A stretch of 39,664 bases of DNA from a virus. Its lineage: Duplodnaviria > Heunggongvirae > Uroviricota > Caudoviricetes. The stretch spans positions 1-39,664 of IMG/VR virus record IMGVR_UViG_2563366953_000005; one strand, 5' to 3'. The position numbers and the translations under genes are program-made. Below, one piece after another: positions 22,288 to 36,869 of the stretch; within the stretch, counting starts at the first letter, position 1, and every line of letters starts with the position of its first letter. A model generated the notes under the pieces. The model saw nothing but the letters and a program-made list of their open reading frames with translations, ran no database searches and was not told the DNA's origin.

Positions 22288-23963
22288 TGTGATTGCCCAC
22301 CCTGACCACTAACTGCATTCGCCATAGCTGACAAAACACTCGGATCCGAAGTTTTAGCTTCGCTTAGCGTCTTGGCACCCTGTGCCGCCGCCATACCCAT
22401 CGCCATCATTTGTTGCTGCTGTTGTTGCTGTGCCCGTTGCTGGCGAGCCTGCTCAACCTGTTCCTGCGGAACAATGACGGTTGGAGACACTCCGGACATA
22501 TCAGCGAATGCATCGATCGCCTGATCAACGTTGAGTTTGTCGAGAGCTTCTGGTTTCGCTTGCGCAAGTTGACCAATGAAGTTAACCGTGGACGCCAGAC
22601 TGGACAGGCCGATAGACTTCTGCGCCTGAGCCATGACGGAAATGTATTCGACCTTCAGGGGCATACCTTCCATCACGTCTGGCGGTGGCGGCAGCATGTT
22701 TTTACGCACCATCATCGAGAAAGCGCGGTCAATGAGAGGATTAAGACATTCGTCGTTCAGACGCTCCAGAACCGGACCCAACATCAGAAGTTTTTCTTCT
22801 TTCATTTCGATCACCGCTTCAACAGGCATCGAGCGGGTATTGATGTTCTGCAACATCATGAACAGATCGACAAAGTAGGCGCTGTTAATGATTTGACGAG
22901 TGTCCTGAATGTCTGCTACCAGATCTGCTGTACTGGGGTTAACCAGATAAGCAGGCCTGAAACCATCCTGACCAGTAATCTGATCGATATACGTGATGTC
23001 GCCAGGAAGAAGGGAGGCGCGCTGATTCTTGAGGGAAGTCGGAGCAACCATCGGCGGATTGGTGGCTTTATCAATCAACTGCGACTTGCGCTTCTGGAGA
23101 AGCTGCAATGCCTTAACAGGTCCAAGCGCCAGCATACCCGGGCATGATGATCCATAAACATCTTCGCCGTTAACTTCCCAGCGCGGAGCCATAATTGGAA
23201 ACTCATCGAATCCGGACTCACGCAACAACTTGTCGTTATCGCCACCAACCTCGTAATAAACCGATTTGAATGGCTTGTTCTTGCTATCCAGCTTCGATGT
23301 ATCGCGGTCAATGTTCGGGTAAACCGAATGCATCACTTCAATCCACTTCTCGTAGGTGCCGCTTTCCCACATGCTTTTTACGGATTCGCTGACGTTATTT
23401 AGCCCGAACTCCTGAACAAGCTGACGAACAGTCATAGAGAACTTGCGAAAACAGGTGTCCACACTGCCACGAGGTGAGTTAGCCAGGTAGTAACTGCCTA
23501 TCGGGAATGGCATTGTGCGAATGATGTCCTCGTCATCCTCCAGCACTGCCATTGCACCAGTGCTGTATGTGCCGAGGCTTCCGTATAACTGCGGCAGCGA
23601 CTGATAGAGATTCGACTTATTGAACATATCGTTCATGCGGTTCTGCACCGCCTCAAGCCACAACTTAACAGGGCCATAATCCATCATTTCAGGATCTGGC
23701 GTAGCCAGGCGAAACCACGGACGCGCGGGGCTTGTGATGCCTGACATCATGCCGCTGGCGAGAGTGCGCTCCGCCATAGTCCCGGTCGAATCAATAATGC
23801 GTGTATTGCGTCGATCGTTACGGTTGACCTCAGAAGTCAGAAAGCGGGAACCACGCGGGTTGATGTAATCACTCAACTCGCGCCAGTGCGGCTCGAACGA
23901 CTGACGCTCGCTTTCAAGTTGTGCGAACTGTTTGTTCAATCGCTCTTTAGTTGTTTCCGCCAT
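22284..23963 (-). CDS. Portal (head-to-tail connector) protein
   Basis: 559 aa; ATG preceded by ggagtcattgaa; size, position after terminase genes, and Gln/Ala-rich C-terminal tail fit podovirus connector proteins. Confidence 0.75.
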   Translation of the reverse strand: MAETTKERLNKQFAQLESERQSFEPHWRELSDYINPRGSRFLTSEVNRNDRRNTRIIDSTGTMAERTLASGMMSGITSPARPWFRLATPDPEMMDYGPVKLWLEAVQNRMNDMFNKSNLYQSLPQLYGSLGTYSTGAMAVLEDDEDIIRTMPFPIGSYYLANSPRGSVDTCFRKFSMTVRQLVQEFGLNNVSESVKSMWESGTYEKWIEVMHSVYPNIDRDTSKLDSKNKPFKSVYYEVGGDNDKLLRESGFDEFPIMAPRWEVNGEDVYGSSCPGMLALGPVKALQLLQKRKSQLIDKATNPPMVAPTSLKNQRASLLPGDITYIDQITGQDGFRPAYLVNPSTADLVADIQDTRQIINSAYFVDLFMMLQNINTRSMPVEAVIEMKEEKLLMLGPVLERLNDECLNPLIDRAFSMMVRKNMLPPPPDVMEGMPLKVEYISVMAQAQKSIGLSSLASTVNFIGQLAQAKPEALDKLNVDQAIDAFADMSGVSPTVIVPQEQVEQARQQRAQQQQQQQMMAMGMAAAQGAKTLSEAKTSDPSVLSAMANAVSGQGGQSQ

Positions 23964-23977
23964 TTCAATGACTCCGG

Positions 23978-24184
23978 TTACTGACCAAGTAGCGTTTTAC
24001 CGCTGGTATTAGCGGTTGATGTGTCGCCCTGAGAACCGGTAAGCAGCGTAGAACTACGACCAGCAGCAGCGCGACGGCGACGTGTTTCTTCGTCGCGGGC
24101 ATCAACAATGACGGCATCCTGCTCCTGTGGTGCTGCCTGAACTTCTGGTGTTGCAGGCACTGATGGTGAGCTACCCATGCACAT
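23978..24184 (-). CDS. Small low-complexity protein upstream of portal
   Basis: 68 aa; its start is preceded by the same 12-nt sequence cggagtcattga found before the portal start, suggesting a genuine translation initiation region; composition is low complexity, so coding status is uncertain. Confidence 0.35.
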   Translation of the reverse strand: MCMGSSPSVPATPEVQAAPQEQDAVIVDARDEETRRRRAAAGRSSTLLTGSQGDTSTANTSGKTLLGQ

Positions 24185-24252
24185 ATCAATGACTCCGTAC
24201 GCAATTAAATTATTACCAATTTAACCACATATGATTTATTTATCGTAGATAC

Positions 24253-24289
24253 TTGACATTTAATGCACTAATTATTACCTTTCAGGTAA
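24253..24289 (+). promoter_or_regulatory. Sigma70-like promoter with overlapping operator
   Basis: TTGACA at 24253-24258; operator-type palindrome TTACCTTTCAGGTAA at 24275-24289 overlapping the -10 region; points toward the tRNA unit. Confidence 0.45.
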
Positions 24290-24611
24290 GCAAAGAGTTC
24301 ATTCCGGTTATTAACCTGACTGGCTTGTCGTTAAATTGAACAGGTGGGGTGAGCTTTTATTTTGAGCAGTACGGTGTATGGCACATGCGCCGATAGCGGT
24401 CTGGATACGTTTAAGGGGCACCCTCCCTTGCTCGGGAAAACGAACCAGGTAGCCGGAATGTGCAAGTCGAGCGGTTTTATTCCGCGCACGGGGATTCACC
24501 ATCCCGGCGATTCGGTGTGACACCTCGGAAGAGACGAGGGTGCAACGATGAGAGCATTTATGGAGCCGCGACAAAGTGTGGTGCCTTAACAGGCTAAGTG
24601 CTCTCAGCGTT

Positions 24612-24688
24612 GTGGCATTAGCTCAGTTGGACAGAGCAACCGCCTTCTAAGCGGTTGGTCGCAGGTTCGAATCCTGCATGCCACGCCA
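24612..24688 (+). tRNA. tRNA-Arg (anticodon UCU)
   Basis: 77 nt; 7-bp acceptor stem GTGGCAT/ATGCCAC, D-arm GCTC-AGTTGGACA-GAGC, anticodon stem ACCGC/GCGGT with loop CTTCTAA (anticodon TCT), T-arm GCAGG-TTCGAAT-CCTGC, discriminator G and encoded CCA. Confidence 0.85.
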
Positions 24689-24731
24689 GAATCACGCCTA
24701 AGGACCGTGATGCCAGAAGTTCCAGGTGCTT

Positions 24732-24775
24732 GGCGGTGATGGTTTCCCTTGAAGGACTATCACCGCCCTTTTTAC
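24732..24775 (+). terminator. Terminator downstream of tRNA-Arg
   Basis: Stem ggcggtgat (24732-24740) pairs with atcaccgcc (24759-24767), followed by cttttt. Confidence 0.55.
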
Positions 24776-24851
24776 AGCAGGACGCCATTGCGATGACTTC
24801 ATGCTGTAAACCAGTACAGCCACGGAAGGCATAACTCATTGCTTCCAGTTC

Positions 24852-24875
24852 GCCCGGTTCGCCGGGCATTTTTTT
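24852..24875 (+). terminator. UUCG-tetraloop hairpin plus T7 tract abutting the RBS of the next gene
   Basis: gcccgg-ttcg-ccgggc then a ttttttt; the SD aaggtgag starts 1 nt after the T tract. Confidence 0.55.
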
Positions 24876-24886
24876 AAGGTGAGATT

Positions 24887-25243
24887 ATGAACGACCAGCA
24901 AATCGAAAAAGAAATCGTTGAGAAAGGCCAAACCGCTCCGCGAGTTACGCCTCAATATATCGAAAGCATCATTCTTGAAGAGCATTTCTTTACTGCTTAT
25001 GACGGCATTCGTGCTGCCAATATGGGCGTTGGCGATTCATGGACAGCGCATAAATCTACAGACCTCCTGACTTTCTGCGTACTGGTGCTGAAGAATGGCT
25101 TCACCGTCACCGGAGAGAGCGCCTGTGCAAGCCCGGAAAACTTTGATGCAGAAATTGGTCGGAAGATTGCCCGGCAGAATGCTGTAAACAAAATCTGGAC
25201 GCTCGAAGGTTACTTGCTGAAGCAGAAGCTAAGCGAGCAATAA
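24887..25243 (+). CDS. Orphan small phage protein of unknown function
   Basis: 118 aa; ATG with strong SD aaggtgag; plus-strand gene between terL and the tRNA, antisense to the late operon; followed by a terminator. Confidence 0.6.
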   Translation: MNDQQIEKEIVEKGQTAPRVTPQYIESIILEEHFFTAYDGIRAANMGVGDSWTAHKSTDLLTFCVLVLKNGFTVTGESACASPENFDAEIGRKIARQNAVNKIWTLEGYLLKQKLSEQ

Positions 25244-25247
25244 CACC

Positions 25248-25259
25248 GTGACATGTCAC
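25248..25259. repeat. Palindrome GTGACATGTCAC (copy 2 of 3)
   Basis: Perfect 12-bp palindrome 5 bp after the stop of the 24887-25243 gene. Confidence 0.45.
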
Positions 25260-25263
25260 AAAC

Positions 25264-25290
25264 AGCCAGCCGATGAGCTGGCTTTGTTTT
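25264..25290 (+). terminator. Rho-independent terminator
   Basis: agccagc-cgatga-gctggct followed by ttgtttt. Confidence 0.6.
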
Positions 25291-25333
25291 ATCCTCATCA
25301 GAGGATATCAACGACATTATCCCCTCCAGAGGA

Positions 25334-26809
25334 TTAAGCATAGGGATCGTAATCTGTGATGGCCTTGCCTTGCTGGTTATGTTTCCCGGGAATTCGCAGG
25401 CGCTTCGACACAGGGAAAGCAAACGTCAGCAGTAGCGCATCGCCTTTACCAGGCGAACGCCCAAGTCGTTCTTTGATATCTTCCTTCGGTTCGATAACGA
25501 TTTTACCATCCACGCGAACTTTGTACTCTGCCGCCGACAGATCGTCCGCTGTTTCCTGGTCATCCAGCATCCCGCCCAACCTCAGCCATGTCTTGCATGA
25601 GTTGAACATCTCCCCGCGCTTGTTGAGCATCTGAGGGTCAGTTGACGCACCACCGAACGGAACAAGTTGCCATGTACGTCCCCAGCCATCACCGATTGAC
25701 TTCAAACCGGTTCCGTAACCGAAGTCGATGAATACCGCGTCAGCCTGATACTGGTCTTCAAAGTCAGCGATGCGCTTCGCCATAATCAGATCGTCGGTGG
25801 TCTTGTTGCCAGTCCACAGCACCTTACTATGCAACCCCTGCCGCAGGTATATCACCGCGTCATCAACGCCTGAATATGCCGGGTCAACACCGATTATCAC
25901 CGGAGCATGTGCCACCTGCGCAGCAGTTACCACCCGTTTCATTGCCTCATCAGTAAGACCGGTAGGGATAAACTGCAATTCAGATGCATCAGGGAATATG
26001 CCGCGCACACGGATTTTAACGAAGTCGCTATCTTCCCCGTAGTCATCAACCCATTTCTGCAACTGCTGTTTGTTAGTGCCTTCCACCGTCCGGCTGTCAA
26101 TCTGCGCAGTTTTCCAGCGGTGTTTATATTTGCGGAAACATTCGCGGAAACGCCCGGTGTTACGTGTAGGGTTTCCGAACGCCACCCAGATAATCTCAGT
26201 GTCTTCGTCCGTTAGCGCACCCTCGGCAACTTCCCACACCAGATCCGCAATGTTCGACGCTTCATCAAATACCACGATGATGCGTTTACGCTCGTTGTGT
26301 AGTCCGGCGAATGCCTCAGTGTTGTGCTCAGACCAGGGGATTGCGTCAGCTCGCCACCGCTTGTCGTGCCCAGGATCATTGCTGTACATCGCGGTAGCGG
26401 TACAGGTAAACCAGTCTTTCGTGATAGCAAAGTTCGACCACTTGATAATTTCCGGCCAGGTCTTCGTTCGTAGCTGGTTGTCGGTGTTGGCGGTCACCAC
26501 GACCTTACAATCCTCGCAAGTGGACATGCCCCAGTTGATCAGCATTGAGATGAATGCGGATTTACCAATACCGTGACCAGAAGCGCGTGCCAGCATAAGC
26601 GGCTGATAGCGCGTCTCTGGATTCTGCAGGTGATCACGTATCTCTCGGAACGCATCAGCCTGCCACTGACGTGGGCCGGTAGCATGTGCCAGTTCAGTCC
26701 CCTCTTCCCCCCACGGGAACGCATAGAGGGCATAGCCAAGAGGATCATGAGTGAATCCGGCAATATCCTCGATCAACTGTTCTTCAGGAGATAACGCTGC
26801 ATCTGTCAC
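25334..26809 (-). CDS. Terminase large subunit
   Basis: 491 aa; Walker-A-like ATPase motif (ASGHGIGKSAF) in the N-terminal domain and an acidic nuclease-type C-terminal domain; 4-bp overlap with the upstream small-subunit gene. Confidence 0.85.
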   Translation of the reverse strand: MTDAALSPEEQLIEDIAGFTHDPLGYALYAFPWGEEGTELAHATGPRQWQADAFREIRDHLQNPETRYQPLMLARASGHGIGKSAFISMLINWGMSTCEDCKVVVTANTDNQLRTKTWPEIIKWSNFAITKDWFTCTATAMYSNDPGHDKRWRADAIPWSEHNTEAFAGLHNERKRIIVVFDEASNIADLVWEVAEGALTDEDTEIIWVAFGNPTRNTGRFRECFRKYKHRWKTAQIDSRTVEGTNKQQLQKWVDDYGEDSDFVKIRVRGIFPDASELQFIPTGLTDEAMKRVVTAAQVAHAPVIIGVDPAYSGVDDAVIYLRQGLHSKVLWTGNKTTDDLIMAKRIADFEDQYQADAVFIDFGYGTGLKSIGDGWGRTWQLVPFGGASTDPQMLNKRGEMFNSCKTWLRLGGMLDDQETADDLSAAEYKVRVDGKIVIEPKEDIKERLGRSPGKGDALLLTFAFPVSKRLRIPGKHNQQGKAITDYDPYA

Positions 26810-27434: not shown

Positions 27435-27445
27435 TAGTACCATGC

Positions 27446-27471
27446 AAAATAAAGCCGCCATAGTTGGCGGC
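27446..27471 (-). terminator. Candidate terminator upstream of the late operon
   Basis: On the minus strand: gccgcca-acta-tggcggc followed by tttatttt. Confidence 0.4.
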
Positions 27472-27512
27472 AGTATTCAAAACCCATCAAATTCATCATG
27501 CATAATCTACTC

Positions 27513-27524
27513 GTGACATGTCAC
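27513..27524. repeat. Palindrome GTGACATGTCAC (copy 3 of 3)
   Basis: Perfect 12-bp palindrome between the 27521-27874 gene and the terminator/operators upstream of terS. Confidence 0.45.
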
Positions 27525-27874
27525 ACTATTAATTTCGTTTCATGCCAGCCTTTAGTCACCCAGCATTGCGAGTCACCATTACACGGGCATGAATTTACAG
27601 GAACTCTCTCGCCGCACTTACCGCAACGTTTTCTGCTGATCGATTTTATACGCCCGTGCACGCGTACATCATCCTGGCGGATCAGTAACGCTATATACTC
27701 ACCAAATTCGTAAGGCGCACGCCCGGGGCGACGAGTGGCACAGTTACGCTCCAGCATTTCAATTTCCTGAGCATCAAGCACAATCTCCAGCTTACGCACA
27801 CCAGATGCAGCTTGTCTGGCTCTCTGAGCGGCTTTGCGCTCTGCTGCTGCCTTAGCCATTACCATATCCACCAA
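27521..27874 (-). CDS. Small DNA-binding/zinc-ribbon protein (candidate late-gene regulator)
   Basis: 117 aa; basic N-terminal region (AKAAAERKAAQRARQAASGVRK), C-terminal Cys cluster CGKCGERVPVNSCPCNGDSQC; last early gene, directly upstream of the late control region. Confidence 0.45.
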   Translation of the reverse strand: MVDMVMAKAAAERKAAQRARQAASGVRKLEIVLDAQEIEMLERNCATRRPGRAPYEFGEYIALLIRQDDVRVHGRIKSISRKRCGKCGERVPVNSCPCNGDSQCWVTKGWHETKLIV

Positions 27875-31283: not shown

Positions 31284-31286
31284 GAT

Positions 31287-31363
31287 TTACCTCTGAGGTA
31301 ATTAAAAACCACATAAGACACTAGATCAATAGATTTTAGAATATTTTATTACCCGACAGGTAA
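31287..31363. promoter_or_regulatory. Pair of operator-like palindromes in the P-to-nin intergenic region
   Basis: TTACCTCTGAGGTAA (31287-31301) and TTACCCGACAGGTAA (31349-31363) separated by AT-rich sequence. Confidence 0.45.
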
Positions 31364-31400
31364 TTATTGAGGCGTAAAAAAATGCGCTATCGCGCTGGTA

Positions 31401-32201
31401 TTACTTGATAAATCCTGCCTCCTTTCCCCGCCTGTATTCCTCCATAAGCCACTGCGCCGGTGTTATTCCACCCAGGGTGGCGGCATTAGGCATGCACCCG
31501 AAACTTCGCCCTGGTGGATGGTAAACGTCTCTCCCTGTGTCCGGAGGTGTACTCATGGGTTCTGGCTTTGCCTGTATGCTGATCACCGGATCGGGTATCT
31601 GCTGTCCTGAAGCCACCTTTTTCGCCCAATCATCGAGCAGCCTGCGCGCGTGTTTCTCAACCTCAATCTCGCTAAGCTGGCGCTGATACATTGCACGGCG
31701 GGTATCACATACGACCCAGTACATAACCGGATGTCGCCACGGGAATCTTTCGGGACCACCAGGATATAAACTTTTTTCCTTGCTGTACCGGTGAAACTCC
31801 GCCATCACATCGTCAATGGTGACACCAAGAACCATCTTGCTGTCTTTGCACCACTTGATAAATTGCCCAGGCGACGGCCAGAACGGAGATTCACTGGCGC
31901 GGGCATGGCGCATACCAGCAGAAACCTGTTCACGGGTTCGGATCCCCCCTTCGGCAAACGCAGCAATCCACTGCTGTTTTGCAGCAACTTCCTGCTCTGG
32001 CGTCTTCAGGTTGGTTACCACTGCCGCCGGAAACAGTTGTTTCAACTGTTTGAAAAGGGCATCAACAAGCCTCTCTGCTGACATGTTCACCACGTTGTCA
32101 TTGTTGGTGTACTGATGCTCATAACCTGACATGCGAGAAAGGGCTTCTCCGTCACGGTTTTGTATCGCGGTAAAAACGTTGTTCACAAGAAATCCTCCCA
32201 T
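31401..32201 (-). CDS. Replication protein P-like (helicase loader)
   Basis: 266 aa; central block QQWIAAFAEGGIRTREQVSAGMRHARASESPFWPSPGQFIKWC closely matches, from memory, the corresponding block of phage lambda P; downstream of the O-like gene as in lambdoid phages. Confidence 0.75.
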   Translation of the reverse strand: MGGFLVNNVFTAIQNRDGEALSRMSGYEHQYTNNDNVVNMSAERLVDALFKQLKQLFPAAVVTNLKTPEQEVAAKQQWIAAFAEGGIRTREQVSAGMRHARASESPFWPSPGQFIKWCKDSKMVLGVTIDDVMAEFHRYSKEKSLYPGGPERFPWRHPVMYWVVCDTRRAMYQRQLSEIEVEKHARRLLDDWAKKVASGQQIPDPVISIQAKPEPMSTPPDTGRDVYHPPGRSFGCMPNAATLGGITPAQWLMEEYRRGKEAGFIK

Positions 32202-32998
32202 GCTTCAGGGCTGTTCCAGTGCGGAACGTTGTTATCAGGTAATGTTGATTGCTTCTGTCTGCTAATCTGCAGCCTCCTTGCCAGCTTCTGCTCCCACTGT
32301 GCCTGATGGTATGCCTTACCCTCAGCCATCCAGTAAATTCTGAACTCTGCAAGTTCCTGTGCCGTTGGCAGACTATCCAGGTAGATTCCCTGCAATGAGC
32401 TTTTCCGAAGAAAGTCATCTGATGGCTGCCATTGTTCATGCATGACAAATTTGCCTAATTGCCCTGGCCCACCAGGAGGAACAAAGTTATTCATCACGGC
32501 GTTGTTTGCGCCGGGGTCATGATGCACAGAATCCCCGTTTTTTGTCCTGCTCTCCCTCTCTTGGTTAAATGACTGGTTATATGACTGGTTCTGGATCCCG
32601 TTTTTGGGATCATTCAACATCCCGTTTTTGGGATCATTCAACATCCCGTTTTTGGGTATATTCCCGTTTTCGGTAACATTACCGTTTTCGGGTTCATTAC
32701 CCCCCTCCCGGTTGCCTTTAATGTTCCCGTTTTTGGTTATATTAAGAGAGAAAACCCGCACTCTTTTCGTCGCTCCCTTTCTCTCTCCGGTATCTGAAAT
32801 AAGCCCCATTTTCATGAGCGATATAAGCCCGGCCTGCACGGTTTTTTTATTCAGGCAAGTGTCTTTAACGAGGCGTTCTATGCTGGGGTAGCAGAGGTTA
32901 TATTCATCGGCTCTGTCAGCCATCGAGAGCAGTATGAGCTTTAATGACGAGCTACCTGGATCTGTCTCCCAGGCCCAATCTGTTGCATGTCTGCTCAT
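32183..32998 (-). CDS. Replication initiator, O-like, with internal origin iterons
   Basis: 271 aa; N-terminal winged-helix/HTH-like region (LKLILLSMADRADEYNLCYPSIERLVKDTCLNKKTVQAGLISL); central tandem peptide repeats (KNGMLNDP x2 and variants) encoded by the DNA iterons; position upstream of P-like gene. Confidence 0.65.
   Translation of the reverse strand: MSRHATDWAWETDPGSSSLKLILLSMADRADEYNLCYPSIERLVKDTCLNKKTVQAGLISLMKMGLISDTGERKGATKRVRVFSLNITKNGNIKGNREGGNEPENGNVTENGNIPKNGMLNDPKNGMLNDPKNGIQNQSYNQSFNQERESRTKNGDSVHHDPGANNAVMNNFVPPGGPGQLGKFVMHEQWQPSDDFLRKSSLQGIYLDSLPTAQELAEFRIYWMAEGKAYHQAQWEQKLARRLQISRQKQSTLPDNNVPHWNSPEAWEDFL
32595..32743. repeat. Origin-type iteron array inside the O-like gene
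   Basis: Two perfect tandem 24-bp repeats atcccgtttttgggatcattcaac (32595-32618, 32619-32642) followed by four degenerate copies sharing the core cccgttttt/cgg. Confidence 0.7.
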
Positions 32999-33013
32999 GA
33001 TTAATCTCCGCTA

Positions 33014-33214
33014 TCAGCTTGAATGTTGTGGGGAGGAATTAATCATGATCTGCTTAATCTCTGCCCTGATACGACGGTTTGATTCCATGGTGCACTCAAC
33101 ACAGTGTCCGTTGTAAACCCAGCGTTCACTGTCATGTCCGTGCTTACATGGTTTTCCGGTGTAGTAGCGTTTAAGTCCGCGCTTTGCGGCATCAATACGT
33201 GTAATGATTTCCAT
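33014..33214 (-). CDS. Small zinc-binding protein (CII-position gene)
   Basis: 66 aa from the ATG at 33214; motif CKHGH ... CVEC; sits between the Cro-like gene and the O-like gene. Confidence 0.4.
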   Translation of the reverse strand: MEIITRIDAAKRGLKRYYTGKPCKHGHDSERWVYNGHCVECTMESNRRIRAEIKQIMINSSPQHSS

Positions 33215-33293
33215 GGTAAGCCCTGTTATTAGTATTGGGATTACGGTTATTTTGTGCTGACACAAAAAAAAGATCAACCATATTTGGTTTTTA

Positions 33294-33308
33294 TTACCTT
33301 TGAGGTAC
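33294..33308. promoter_or_regulatory. Operator-like palindrome TTACCTTTGAGGTAC
   Basis: One mismatch from TTACC-N5-GGTAA. Confidence 0.4.
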
Positions 33309-33323
33309 GAATAGATATGAAAA

Positions 33324-33343
33324 GACCGCCGGGTGGCGGTCTA
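33324..33343 (-). terminator. tR1-like terminator downstream of the Cro-like gene
   Basis: agaccgcc-gggt-ggcggtct 8-bp stem; on the minus strand it is followed by tttcatatct. Confidence 0.45.
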
Positions 33344-33363
33344 CAGAGGGTTGTGGCTGGATA

Positions 33364-33594
33364 TCATGAGTAGAAGAAGTATGCCAGTTCTGCTTTTGAG
33401 CGCAGCCATTGTCTTGTTTTACAGGCTTTAAAAAGCCCATTCATCAATACTTTACCTGGCATTTTGCGCTTACCTGTTAAGTGAGTCTGGATATAGTGAC
33501 TCGTCGTTCCGGCTTCCTGTGCGAAGGCTTCACGCTCATCCGGAGTAAGTGCAAGCCAGTGCTTTTTGAAATCGAAATGTCCGTTATCGCTCAT
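33364..33594 (-). CDS. Cro-like HTH regulator
   Basis: 76 aa; HTH-like segment LTPDEREAFAQEAGTTSHYIQ; divergently transcribed from the repressor-like gene across the operator cluster. Confidence 0.55.
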   Translation of the reverse strand: MSDNGHFDFKKHWLALTPDEREAFAQEAGTTSHYIQTHLTGKRKMPGKVLMNGLFKACKTRQWLRSKAELAYFFYS

Positions 33595-33630
33595 AGCTAT
33601 TGCCTGATATTTATTTCAGATAATAAATAT

Positions 33631-33693
33631 TCACCCATAAGGTAACAAAAATCAAGGATAGTTACCTGTGGGGTGCATTTACCTGTTGGGTAA
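33631..33693. promoter_or_regulatory. Immunity-region operator cluster (three TTACC-N5-GGTAA-type sites)
   Basis: TCACCCATAAGGTAA (33631-33645, 1 mismatch), TTACCTGTGGGGTGC (33662-33676, 2 mismatches), TTACCTGTTGGGTAA (33679-33693, perfect), between divergent Cro-like and repressor-like genes. Confidence 0.55.
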
Positions 33694-33748
33694 TATTGCT
33701 TTAAATTGAATCATCTACTGATTCATATATGAGGCGATTTTCCAGAAA

Positions 33749-34333
33749 ATGAAAAGTATCCAGGACGTCCGCAGGCAAAATCTCAACGACTTGATCGACC
33801 GTGAATTCAATGGTGTTCAGACGCGGATGGCAGAAAAACTTGGAACTCAGGCAAATCTGGTAAACCGCTGGGCTCTTGGCAAGAAGGTTATCGGCGACCA
33901 GGTTGCGCGAAAAATTGAAGCTGCCGCCAATAAACCCCGTAACTGGCTTGATATCGATCGCTCGCTTTCTCAGGAAGGTTTTCAGCCTGTCGGCCCAAGC
34001 GACATTGGTCAGCTGGCGGCTCACAACCTGGAACGCTGGATGAGCGAAAGCCGCGACCTTTCAACGCAGGGAAAACTTCACCGCGCATCCGGCGTCGCCC
34101 AGGTGACAATCAGTCGCCTGTTAAACAATGAGGTCAGCGTTTCCATTTCCACCCTGGAGAATGTTGCATCCGCATTCGGGCGTCACGGATATGAACTACT
34201 GATTCACCCGCACGACCCTGCGACTATCAACTATGACCGCTCACGCTACGCATTGTTACCCGAAACCGAGAAAGCAAAGATCGAAAGTTACATTGAATTT
34301 GTCATCAACCAGAACGAAAAAAGCAAACAATAA
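33749..34333 (+). CDS. Prophage repressor-like protein with two HTH-like regions and no recognisable S24 peptidase domain
   Basis: 194 aa; N-terminal HTH (TRMAEKLGTQANLVNRWALGKKVIGDQVARKIE) and a second HTH-like segment (LHRASGVAQVTISRLLNNE); no Ala-Gly/GDSM/Lys signature of LexA-type autocleavage; position equivalent to cI. Confidence 0.55.
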   Translation: MKSIQDVRRQNLNDLIDREFNGVQTRMAEKLGTQANLVNRWALGKKVIGDQVARKIEAAANKPRNWLDIDRSLSQEGFQPVGPSDIGQLAAHNLERWMSESRDLSTQGKLHRASGVAQVTISRLLNNEVSVSISTLENVASAFGRHGYELLIHPHDPATINYDRSRYALLPETEKAKIESYIEFVINQNEKSKQ

Positions 34334-34390
34334 AACTATATTTTTCAGTAAGTAAGCCGCCTCATGGCGGCTTTTTTATTGCCAGATAGA

Positions 34391-34467
34391 TTACCTTACG
34401 GGTAATTTTTTTAACTCATATCTATTGACACCAAACCAAATAAGCATAATTATTACCTCAACGGTAA
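34391..34467 (+). promoter_or_regulatory. PL-like promoter with two operators
   Basis: TTACCTTACGGGTAA (34391-34405), TTGACA (34425-34430), TTACCTCAACGGTAA (34453-34467) overlapping the -10/+1 region; drives the rightward recombination operon. Confidence 0.5.
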
Positions 34468-34486
34468 CAGACCGAGGTAACAAGTT

Positions 34487-35846: not shown

Positions 35847-36869
35847 ATGTCTATCAATGCACTTAAGGCAGCGGCTACCGGTAACCAAGTTGCACATCAT
35901 AATGAGAAACCAACAACTCTGGCCGGACTTCTGGCAGACCCAAAAATTAAAGCTCAGATGGCTTTGGCACTTCCAAAGCACATGACAGCAGACCGTCTGG
36001 CGCGCATAGCAACCACAGAGATCCGAAAGGTTCCAAAACTTGCATCATGCGACCAAGCCAGCTTCCTGGGGGCAATTATGCAATGTGCCCAATTGGGTCT
36101 TGAACCAGGCGGAGCTCTTGGACACGCTTACCTGATACCGTTCGACAAACGCCAGAAAGTAAATGGAAGATGGGAAACCGTATCTACAGAAGCACAGCTG
36201 ATTATCGGCTATCGCGGAATGATTGACCTTGCCCGCCGCTCTGGGCAGATCCTGAGTATCTCGGCTCGTACCGTACATACAAACGACAAATTCAGCTACT
36301 CATACGGCCTGGAAGAAACGCTCGAGCATTTACCTTGCGAAACAGGTGACCGCGGAGAATTAACGCACGTTTACGCCGTTGCACGACTGAAAGATGGCGG
36401 AGTCCAATTTGAAGTTATGAGCCGGGCAGACATTGAGAAAGTTCGTGCACTGAGCAAAGCCGGTAGCAGTGGCCCATGGGTTGATCACTTCGATGAGATG
36501 GCTAAAAAAACAGTAATTCGCCGACTATTCAAATATCTTCCTGTTTCTATTGAAATGCAGAAGGCTGTTGTTATGGATGAGCGCGCTGAAGCTGGACTTA
36601 GCCAAGATAACGCAGCTGTTATCACTGGTGAATATTCCGTAGTTGACGATGAGCGTCAACACCTGTCGCCAATTTCAGATTCAGAACGAGAAGAAGCTCG
36701 AGAATATATCATCGCGATACTTAATAGCCTGGATCCATCTGCTGAAGATGCAAAAACGATGTTCAAGCGCGCTGAAAATGAGATTAACACCATGGCTGAA
36801 AAGCTCGGTGATGAATATCACCAAAAATTCATGATGACGCTTAACGATATGCGTCCAGAATTCGAGTAA
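35847..36869 (+). CDS. RecT-family single-strand annealing protein
   Basis: 340 aa; core region LGLEPGGALGHAYLIPF...IIGYRGMIDLARRSGQI typical of RecT/Bet-type recombinases; acidic C-terminal tail. Confidence 0.8.
   Translation: MSINALKAAATGNQVAHHNEKPTTLAGLLADPKIKAQMALALPKHMTADRLARIATTEIRKVPKLASCDQASFLGAIMQCAQLGLEPGGALGHAYLIPFDKRQKVNGRWETVSTEAQLIIGYRGMIDLARRSGQILSISARTVHTNDKFSYSYGLEETLEHLPCETGDRGELTHVYAVARLKDGGVQFEVMSRADIEKVRALSKAGSSGPWVDHFDEMAKKTVIRRLFKYLPVSIEMQKAVVMDERAEAGLSQDNAAVITGEYSVVDDERQHLSPISDSEREEAREYIIAILNSLDPSAEDAKTMFKRAENEINTMAEKLGDEYHQKFMMTLNDMRPEFE

Follow-up and report, generated by a model that had tools for sequence, protein, structure and literature searches.

A putative exchangeable cargo slot between a backbone terminator and a palindrome holds an Acb4-family gene in an epsilon15-like temperate phage

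We analyzed a 118-amino-acid (aa) open reading frame (ORF) and its surroundings in a 39,664-nt stretch of viral DNA (IMG/VR record IMGVR_UViG_2563366953_000005, positions 1 to 39,664), which is called the window throughout. The window is an epsilon15/phiV10-like (Uetakevirus-type) temperate podophage; its minus strand carries terS, terL and the portal gene, and at the DNA level it best matches phiV10, ZX5 and the O157 typing phages 9 and 10. Its late genes occupy the minus strand; the ORF belongs to a small plus-strand unit that sits opposite them, between terL and the portal gene. From its 5′ end, this unit would comprise a repressor-controlled promoter with its operator, a leader of ~320 nt, tRNA-Arg(UCU), terminator T1, a conserved 42-nt block, terminator T2 (a UUCG hairpin followed by U7), a Shine-Dalgarno sequence (SD) belonging to the phage backbone, the cargo ORF, a 12-bp palindrome and terminator T3 (Table 1). 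Of 5426 complete E. coli genomes, 223 contain at least 80% of the 1.1-kb locus (24240–25340), which is labeled there by RefSeq as a Gp49 family protein with tRNA-Arg. A previous sequence-only reading of the same DNA had described the ORF as an orphan gene, possibly under SOS control.

Table 1 Features of the plus-strand unit, in window coordinates
Feature	Position	Strand	Description and basis
Candidate early promoter	24253–24281	+	−35 TTGACA (24253–24258), 17-bp spacer, −10 TACCTT (24276–24281)
Candidate phage repressor operator ATTACCTTTCAGGTAAG	24274–24290		Overlaps the −10; one mismatch to ATTACCT-N3-AGGTAAT
tRNA-Arg, anticodon TCT	24612–24688	+	ARAGORN; Rfam RF00005 at 73.3 bits
Terminator T1	24732–24773	+	Long hairpin 24732–24767, then C and T5; terminator scan
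Conserved 42-nt block TTTACAGCAGGACGCCATTGCGATGACTTCATGCTGTAAACC	24771–24812		Holds the inverted repeat and the CTGT half of the box
CTGT-N8-ACAG motif CTGTAAACCAGTACAG	24804–24819		Core match; LexA matrix score below training sites
Small hairpin between 42-nt block and T2	24824–24846	+	Predicted in fold
Terminator T2, predicted left slot border	24852–24875	+	GCCCGG-UUCG-CCGGGC (24852–24867), A, U7 (24869–24875); terminator scan
Shine-Dalgarno sequence AAGGTGAG	24876–24883	+	Backbone feature common to different cargo ORFs
acb4-family gene (PF13876, 'Gp49 family protein'), 118 aa	24887–25243	+	Pfam, PHROG, PDB sequence and profile searches, fold
Palindrome GTGACATGTCAC, predicted right slot border	25248–25259		Three exact window copies, conserved in relatives
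Terminator T3	25264–25293	+	AGCCAGC-CGATGA-GCTGGCT, then TTTGTTTTAT; ends the plus-strand unit before convergent terL; terminator scan

By its sequence and predicted fold, the product of the 118-aa gene is a member of the Acb4 family. It matched Pfam PF13876 (Phage_gp49_66) over model positions 1–82 of 82 (E = 3.9e-34; 117.4 bits against a cut-off of 27) and phrog_322 (E = 1.8e-61), and at least 8000 protein-database clusters match it at E ≤ 0.001, many of them named 'Gp49 family protein'. Among solved structures, the only confident sequence match was PDB 9e4w, the Acb4 of phage SPO1, at E = 0.006 with the single sequence and E = 6.3e-5 with a 58-sequence profile. The AlphaFold2 monomer model (predicted local distance difference test score 87.6) contains the elements H-H-E-H-H-E-E-H and reproduces the fold of the Acb4 monomer, with a three-stranded antiparallel sheet, N-terminal helices and a long C-terminal helix. 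When this model was searched against the PDB with Foldseek, the top 13 hits were all chains of 9e4w (probability 1.0; target-normalised template-modelling score 0.62–0.73), and the next hit had E = 0.16. PF13876 has been equated with Acb4 (anti-CBASS 4; CBASS, cyclic oligonucleotide-based antiphage signaling system) in two papers, and Table S3 of the Acb4 paper lists A0A2S8DH85, which differs from the window protein at 4 residues, as well as the homologues from phiV10 and Sf6 (gp66). The sequence-only reading had placed the ORF correctly, with its ATG at 24887. The profile search that it proposed returned PF13876 and phrog_322, hence the gene is no orphan: it adds a new member to a known family, is ordinary in itself and has already been catalogued by sequence.

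Acb4 is a phage protein of ~100 aa that forms a tetramer and sequesters cyclic dinucleotides. SPO1 Acb4 and all eight diverse homologues that were assayed bind 3′3′-cGAMP, and the Acb4 of N4, also a founding member of that family in Pfam, sets off the PanDA guard system and binds c-di-AMP at 111 nM. By homology, the window protein would form a tetramer that sequesters CBASS cyclic dinucleotides, namely 3′3′-cGAMP and probably, as in Gram-negative homologues, c-di-AMP, and such sequestration would prevent activation of the host effector. Like SPO1 Acb4, it is small and phage-encoded, with the same predicted fold; the ENF-x-x-EIGR helix motif is kept, as are several ligand contacts (SPO1/window F48/F72, F62/F86 and I66/I90, with N63 aligned to D87). 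It differs from the SPO1 protein in overall sequence (~25% identity) and in a longer N-terminus. In an alignment of the enterobacterial clade, residues 60–118 were almost invariant and residues 41–59 formed an indel-rich hypervariable loop, which abuts the position aligned to SPO1 K36, a guanine contact. Since the residues that contact the ligand in SPO1 Acb4 are conserved here only in part, ligand specificity is not readable from the sequence. Homologues in N4-like coliphages are ~39% identical to the window protein, and Sf6 and other P22-like phages have only the ORF in common with the window (~91% identity), not its flanks. At the DNA level the allele is a mosaic, its 5′ half resembling the P22-like gene 66 and its 3′ half being identical to phiV10.

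The gene is embedded among intrinsic terminators, of which a scan of 23900–25500 counted five candidate sites against 1.6 expected. T1 folds at −22.8 kcal/mol (z = −5.0); in an alignment of 10 phages, 86% of its cells are paired and three pairs have changed on both sides. T2 combines a GC-rich stem of six G-C pairs, a UUCG loop and a U-tract, with a folding energy of −12.7 kcal/mol. Across ten phages from four host genera, 100% of its cells are paired, with loop variants TTCG, TTCGT and TTCC, and two of the six pairs show compensatory changes (GG/CC to AC/GT in Salmonella phages), which probably reflect a single evolutionary event in the Salmonella clade. The equivalent hairpin in epsilon15 (AY150271, 2559–2582), just upstream of the Acb4 homologue, is annotated as a rho-independent terminator, the annotation itself being computational. 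The UUCG hairpin, T7 and AAGGTGA are kept whatever the cargo that follows, including in phage phiv142-3, which has none. These observations indicate that the hairpin with its T7 tract is a genuine intrinsic terminator, and that T2 belongs to the backbone, closing the tRNA unit and marking the left slot edge, rather than being a regulator that arrived with the gene. The sequence-only reading was right that a UUCG hairpin with seven T directly adjoins the SD, at 24852–24875 and 24876–24883, and that a strong terminator with a T-rich tail follows the gene at 25264–25293; it had overlooked tRNA-Arg and T1, both of which alter how the hairpin is to be read. T3 folds at about −12 to −13 kcal/mol and is an annotated terminator in phiV10. 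The small hairpin just ahead of T2 shows no compensatory changes and is deleted, together with flanking bases, in phage PAS61; it is therefore dispensable. On the minus strand the T1, T2 and T3 hairpins lack a U-tract, so that the late operon can read through them.

Comparison with relatives indicates that T2 and the palindrome are the left and right borders of a slot for swappable accessory genes. Between these conserved borders, in otherwise collinear genomes, the interval varies from ~130 to ~1000 nt and holds at least 10 unrelated cargo families, or none. An exact-match scan for the hairpin in IMG/VR recovered 119 further loci. Of 107 analyzable slots, Acb4 occupied 47, a 140-aa family (phrog_4846) 13, a Tad2-like family (PF11195; E = 4e-26 and 1e-23) five, a 115-aa family (phrog_3163) four and a 146-aa family (phrog_18493) three. 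A membrane/coiled-coil family (phrog_4780, 201–292 aa) formed a cluster of eight, which we estimate at ~21 because the ORF finder missed some copies. Several singletons, one of them a VG64-like lipoprotein (PF25682), made up further cargo, and 6–8 slots were empty. Two known anti-defense families, Acb4 and the Tad2-like proteins, are thus among the cargo. The 140-, 115-, 146- and 201-aa cargo families had no functional match in Pfam, PHROG and PDB searches.

The same variety is seen among named phages. Acb4 alleles fill the slot in phiV10, ZX5, typing phage 9, epsilon15 and Kp4865-1, and BUCT554 has a 61-aa ORF together with an Acb4 homologue. Klebsiella phage ST512-KPC3phi13.3 carries a Tad2-like protein (PF11195, E = 4e-26), PAS61 a protein of the 140-aa family, TL-2011b a 115-aa protein, EC.W1-9 and BUCT711 a membrane/coiled-coil protein, PAT1 a 143-aa member of the 146-aa family and SPN1S, as read from its sequence, a probable lipoprotein. 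In Tyrion, the slot holds a 123-aa ORF whose C-terminus resembles the 140-aa family, and a further ORF lies past the palindrome. The slot of phiv142-3 is empty except for a 9-codon remnant, its SD being followed by AAGGTGTGA.

Two modes of occupancy were apparent. SD-coupled cassettes, which comprise Acb4, Tad2 and the families of 140 and 146 aa, begin with the backbone SD right behind the T-run and usually end in ...CACC-GTGACATGTCAC; AA[AG]GTGA directly follows the T-run in 45 of 47 Acb4, 13 of 13 140-aa, 3 of 3 146-aa and 3 of 4 Tad2 slots. The membrane/coiled-coil cargo instead brings its own upstream region, in which the first 40 nt after the T-run of T2 (read from loci L013, L030, L007 and ~18 further IMG/VR loci) contain a promoter, ATGACC-17-TATAAT, with an operator-like ATTACCTTAAAGGTAT in its spacer. 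This cargo would be repressor-controlled in the same way as the promoter upstream of the whole unit. Two further details of slot content were noted. A mini-ORF, MK(Y/D)EFD(G/R)F, precedes the palindrome in phiv142-3 (~1395–1425), where it is the sole remnant in the slot, and in epsilon15 (~1806–1832), where it and the acb4 stop codon overlap (CAATGA); the window lacks it. In the Klebsiella phage BUCT711 (locus L011, 1540–1800), a second cargo ORF of ~80 aa with its own terminator is inserted straight after the T-run of T1, which repeats the layout of terminator, SD and ATG; insertions in this region thus seem to favor terminator ends.

The right border proved equally constant. The sequence-only reading had noted a palindrome 3′ of the gene that recurs at a second gene, at 7748, and this observation is both real and conserved: the 12-mer occurs exactly three times in the window (8030–8041, 25248–25259 and 27513–27524), against 0.00 expected in 100 shuffles, and exactly three times in epsilon15 (locus L136, positions 2142, 19517 and 39612), at the same syntenic junctions. 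These junctions lie after terL, at the end of a small ORF convergent with the LexA-controlled gene, and across the stop codon of the gene for a 117-aa 'transcriptional regulator' (phrog_536), just ahead of the late-strand terminator that precedes terS. The palindrome closes 47 of 47 Acb4 slots and most other SD-coupled cassettes; it takes the form GTGACACGTCAC in the empty slot and GTGATACGTCAC in TL-2011b, where it adjoins the hairpin. From this distribution, the palindrome is a backbone element and no feature of the acb4 gene, and it may be a binding site for a phage protein or a module-boundary element. It was rejected as a promoter or late-activator site, as the three sites share no −10 geometry downstream, and as a CRP or FNR site, the spacing GTGA-N4-TCAC fitting neither.

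The terS junction has a layout of its own. On the late strand (27440–27524), the palindrome is followed after ~41 nt by the hairpin GCCGCCAACTATGGCGGC with a TTTATTTT tail and by an ATG at ~27442, so that a terminator stands directly ahead of terS, as annotated in epsilon15 (39646–39672). The 117-aa Zn-ribbon regulator (27521–27874) ends inside the palindrome. The arrangement resembles layouts of late-operon antitermination or activation, and the annotated TTG start of terS at 27480 is probably upstream of the true start.

With the gene directly behind T2, the source of its transcript is of particular interest. The best plus-strand promoter candidate in 24190–24900, and the sole credible one of sigma70 type up to the ATG, is TTGACA-17-TACCTT at 24253, 634 nt upstream of the gene and ahead of tRNA-Arg. 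Between the E. coli and Salmonella phages (phiV10, ZX5, SPN1S and epsilon15), its spacer differs while its hexamers are kept, and the exact pattern recurs in 78 of 104 IMG/VR loci, ~598 nt upstream of the hairpin. The operator that overlaps its −10 belongs to a set of sites: the window contains 11 matches to ATTACCT-N3-AGGTAAT with at most 3 mismatches, where 1.5 are expected; most of them lie in the immunity region (31286–34468) and one lies upstream of the LexA-controlled gene. At the syntenic position, epsilon15 carries the annotation 'repressor, lysogeny' together with an overlapping integration host factor (IHF) site. A tool scan found no sigma70 promoter in 23900–25500, and a laxer scan found no sigma70-type promoter between 24290 and the ATG; a canonical promoter close to the gene was therefore rejected. 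It follows that the gene would have to be expressed from upstream transcription that passes the terminator, in line with the antitermination or attenuation option of the sequence-only reading.

In a lysogen, the phage repressor would occupy the upstream promoter and keep acb4 silent. Upon infection or induction, RNA polymerase reading through T1 and T2, or antiterminated at them, would transcribe the gene. SPO1 Acb4 activity appears early in infection, and this timing, together with the operator-promoter of the phrog_4780 cargo, is consistent with lytic-phase, repressor-controlled cargo. Taken together, we consider it probable that the window is a Uetakevirus with a repressor-controlled early unit, in which Acb4-family cargo stands behind the backbone terminator T2, the CTGT-N8-ACAG box is fortuitous and expression depends on read-through or antitermination.

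Several points weigh against this reading. The −10 of the predicted promoter matches the consensus at only 3 of 6 positions, though T1, A2 and T6 of the hexamer are kept, and early repressor-controlled expression is something we infer from sequence. Two intrinsic terminators lie between promoter and gene, and no antiterminator was identified; a stoichiometric sponge should need abundant early expression, so that simple leakage may not suffice. The Klebsiella relatives have no recognizable promoter/operator pattern, perhaps because of a different immunity specificity. On the protein side, four SPO1 contacts are replaced (K36 by L60, E49 by T73, Y57 by A81 and T70 by I94), and the anti-CBASS activity of this protein and its clade is predicted by homology. 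Finally, the invariant 42-nt block could hold a non-canonical promoter or a cis-acting RNA.

That block deserves separate weighing, as does the box that it partly contains. It is nearly invariant across phages of E. coli, Salmonella, Klebsiella and Enterobacter, whereas its flanking sequences vary, and it occurs only once in the window. The inverted repeat TTTACAGCA / TGCTGTAAA of the sequence-only reading does exist at 24771–24779 and 24802–24810, but not as a conserved RNA or DNA stem: seven of its nine pairs never vary, two break without compensation, and its arms are simply part of the sequence-conserved block. The block may nevertheless be a real control element, either a promoter off the sigma70 consensus or for a phage factor, with the hairpin as 5′ stabilizer or attenuator, or a put-like cis RNA that confers terminator resistance. 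Its conservation over four host genera, its position immediately ahead of T2 and the cargo SD, the folding of the region into two hairpins and the high expression that a sponge needs, which argues for more than leakage, all speak for such a role, which we nonetheless judge unlikely: no −35/−10 combination in the block reaches 8 of 12 matches on either strand, the fold of 24768–24851 is unexceptional (z = −1.6), permissive Rfam scans of the leader, block and hairpins returned only the tRNA, and the block might just as well work on the late (minus) strand or at the level of DNA. Far less probable still is that LexA binds the box and that the gene is an SOS-controlled moron that DNA damage induces whatever the state of the phage repressor. 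The box does have the CTGT-N8-ACAG core spacing, the 20-mer at 24802 ranks third in the window on a LexA matrix, and the phage does use LexA elsewhere, at a strong box at 7709. This matrix, derived from 21 E. coli SOS boxes, gives approximate values (training sites 12.7–26.5 bits, heterology index (HI) 2.2–12.0); on it, the 20-mer scores 10.4 bits (HI ~13.8), fewer bits than any training site (the weakest has 12.7 bits, HI 12.0) and next to the chance-level sites at 36496 (11.4 bits) and 39349 (9.6 bits). The core itself is only mildly enriched (three in the window against 0.67 expected, with 4 of 100 shuffles reaching three) and therefore constitutes weak evidence alone. Moreover, the centre of the box is not AT-rich, the box lies upstream of a terminator, and both promoter scans found nothing overlapping or adjoining it in 24290–24886. 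Its CTGT half falls inside the block; its ACAG half is missing from all relatives outside the E. coli clade (replaced in epsilon15, SPN1S, PAT1, Tyrion, BUCT554 and Klebsiella phages), though the block is otherwise invariant. The empty-slot phage phiv142-3 has the box, hairpin and SD as well, which makes them backbone features and no regulators brought in by the gene. Judged by sequence, the box is most likely a fortuitous match and no functional LexA box.

A different doubt concerns the protein, whose clade would be wrongly labeled 'anti-CBASS' if the Acb4 fold here had another job, such as RNA binding through a dsRBD-like core (dsRBD, a domain that binds double-stranded RNA) or sequestration of a non-CBASS signal. 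The replaced residues amount to 4 of 10 SPO1 ligand-contact positions and include both guanine-specific ones, the hypervariable loop abuts a pocket position, the authors of the Acb4 paper point to a dsRBD-like structural ancestry, and the family's fusions with Tad2 and Sequestin reveal its use against several signaling systems. We regard another job as improbable given that 8 of 8 diverse homologues assayed bound 3′3′-cGAMP, that the N4 protein, from an E. coli phage, is a proven sponge and that the 59 C-terminal residues of the clade, which contain the pocket helices, are nearly invariant.

The strong LexA box mentioned above, TACTGTATATTTATACAGTT at 7709–7728, is near-consensus (27.3 bits, HI 1.7) and lies just upstream of the ribosome-binding site of an 85-aa gene (7748–8005). 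The product matches phrog_450 and, weakly, an anti-repressor PHROG; box and gene are conserved in epsilon15 (gp19), and a perfect repressor operator, ATTACCTTTCAGGTAAT, lies upstream at 7656–7672. The gene has the look of an antirepressor gene under LexA control, similar in type to SPC32H Ant; the latter and 186 Tum are reportedly genes of this kind. These genes have the CTGT-N8-ACAG core in common with the motif at 24804, which, unlike the 7709 box, is neither near-consensus, nor just upstream of a ribosome-binding site, nor conserved in epsilon15.

Two observations concern the tRNA portion of the unit. A minus-strand ORF of 83 aa (24618–24869), annotated as a hypothetical protein in phiV10 (p04), ZX5, TL-2011b, EC.W1-9 and others, was rejected as a real gene: it is antisense to tRNA-Arg, and its cross-genus alignment has indels of lengths other than multiples of three. 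By these sequence features, the ORF is almost certainly mis-annotated, and several records that carry it leave tRNA-Arg unannotated. A boxA-like TGCTCT is found at 24599–24604, just 5′ of the tRNA, and TGCTCTTTCC occupies the position 5′ of the tRNA or its replacement in PAT1 and BUCT554 (loci L134 and L135, ~1195–1205 and ~1150–1165); this match bears on the read-through question and is too short to mean much alone.

Among known systems, lambdoid morons (the Hendrix/Juhala concept) are autonomously transcribed insertions between late genes; in the classical form they bring a promoter with them, and the prophage often expresses them. The Acb4 cassette is likewise an extra gene between two essential late genes, flanked by terminators and absent in close relatives, but it lacks a promoter of its own and the nearest is under repressor control, which points to lytic-phase rather than lysogenic expression.

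The closest precedents of the whole locus are the epsilon15 annotation and the anti-signaling hotspot of N4-like phages. Epsilon15 (AY150271; hypothetical protein ABK13674, also phiV10 p03) shares the operator-overlapped TTGACA-17-TACCTT promoter, the conserved block, the UUCG hairpin with T7, the AAGGTGA SD, the Acb4 homologue, GTGACATGTCAC, the terminator and terL. It differs in lacking tRNA-Arg and CTGT-N8-ACAG, in the two compensatory changes in its hairpin stem and in a mini-ORF (MKDEFDRF) between gene and palindrome. The N4-like hotspot holds Acb4, Tad2 and Sequestin (bioRxiv 10.64898/2026.06.04.730250) and is similarly a fixed interval with conserved borders and variable content, including Acb4, Tad2 and uncharacterized genes. 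Unlike it, the slot described here is found in a temperate Uetakevirus rather than a lytic N4-like phage, lies between terL and the portal gene in antisense to the late operon, and usually holds a single ORF on a backbone SD straight after a terminator.

Our analysis thus corrects the reading of this gene as orphan and SOS-regulated, and poses a regulatory puzzle instead: how a sponge gene directly behind two intrinsic terminators gets expressed. What goes beyond existing knowledge is a fixed, terminator-bounded accessory slot in temperate Uetakeviruses that carries nucleotide sponges and several uncharacterized proteins. We tentatively suggest, as a possibility still short of probable, that the interval from T2 to GTGACATGTCAC is a dedicated exchange site for early, repressor-controlled counter-defense cassettes in epsilon15-like temperate phages. 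If so, the phrog_4846, phrog_4780, phrog_3163 and phrog_18493 cargo would be new immune antagonists, and the palindrome, the 42-nt block or both would be cis elements that permit cassette exchange or terminator read-through. In practical terms, the slot offers a modest lead, a short list of candidate anti-defense proteins by guilt by association. Epsilon15/phiV10-like prophages of E. coli, Salmonella and Klebsiella carry predicted nucleotide-sponge genes, Acb4 or Tad2, at one fixed site, which bears on the success of these prophages and of phage-typing or therapy candidates against CBASS and Thoeris, and on the triggering of sponge-sensing systems such as Panoptes or PanDA.

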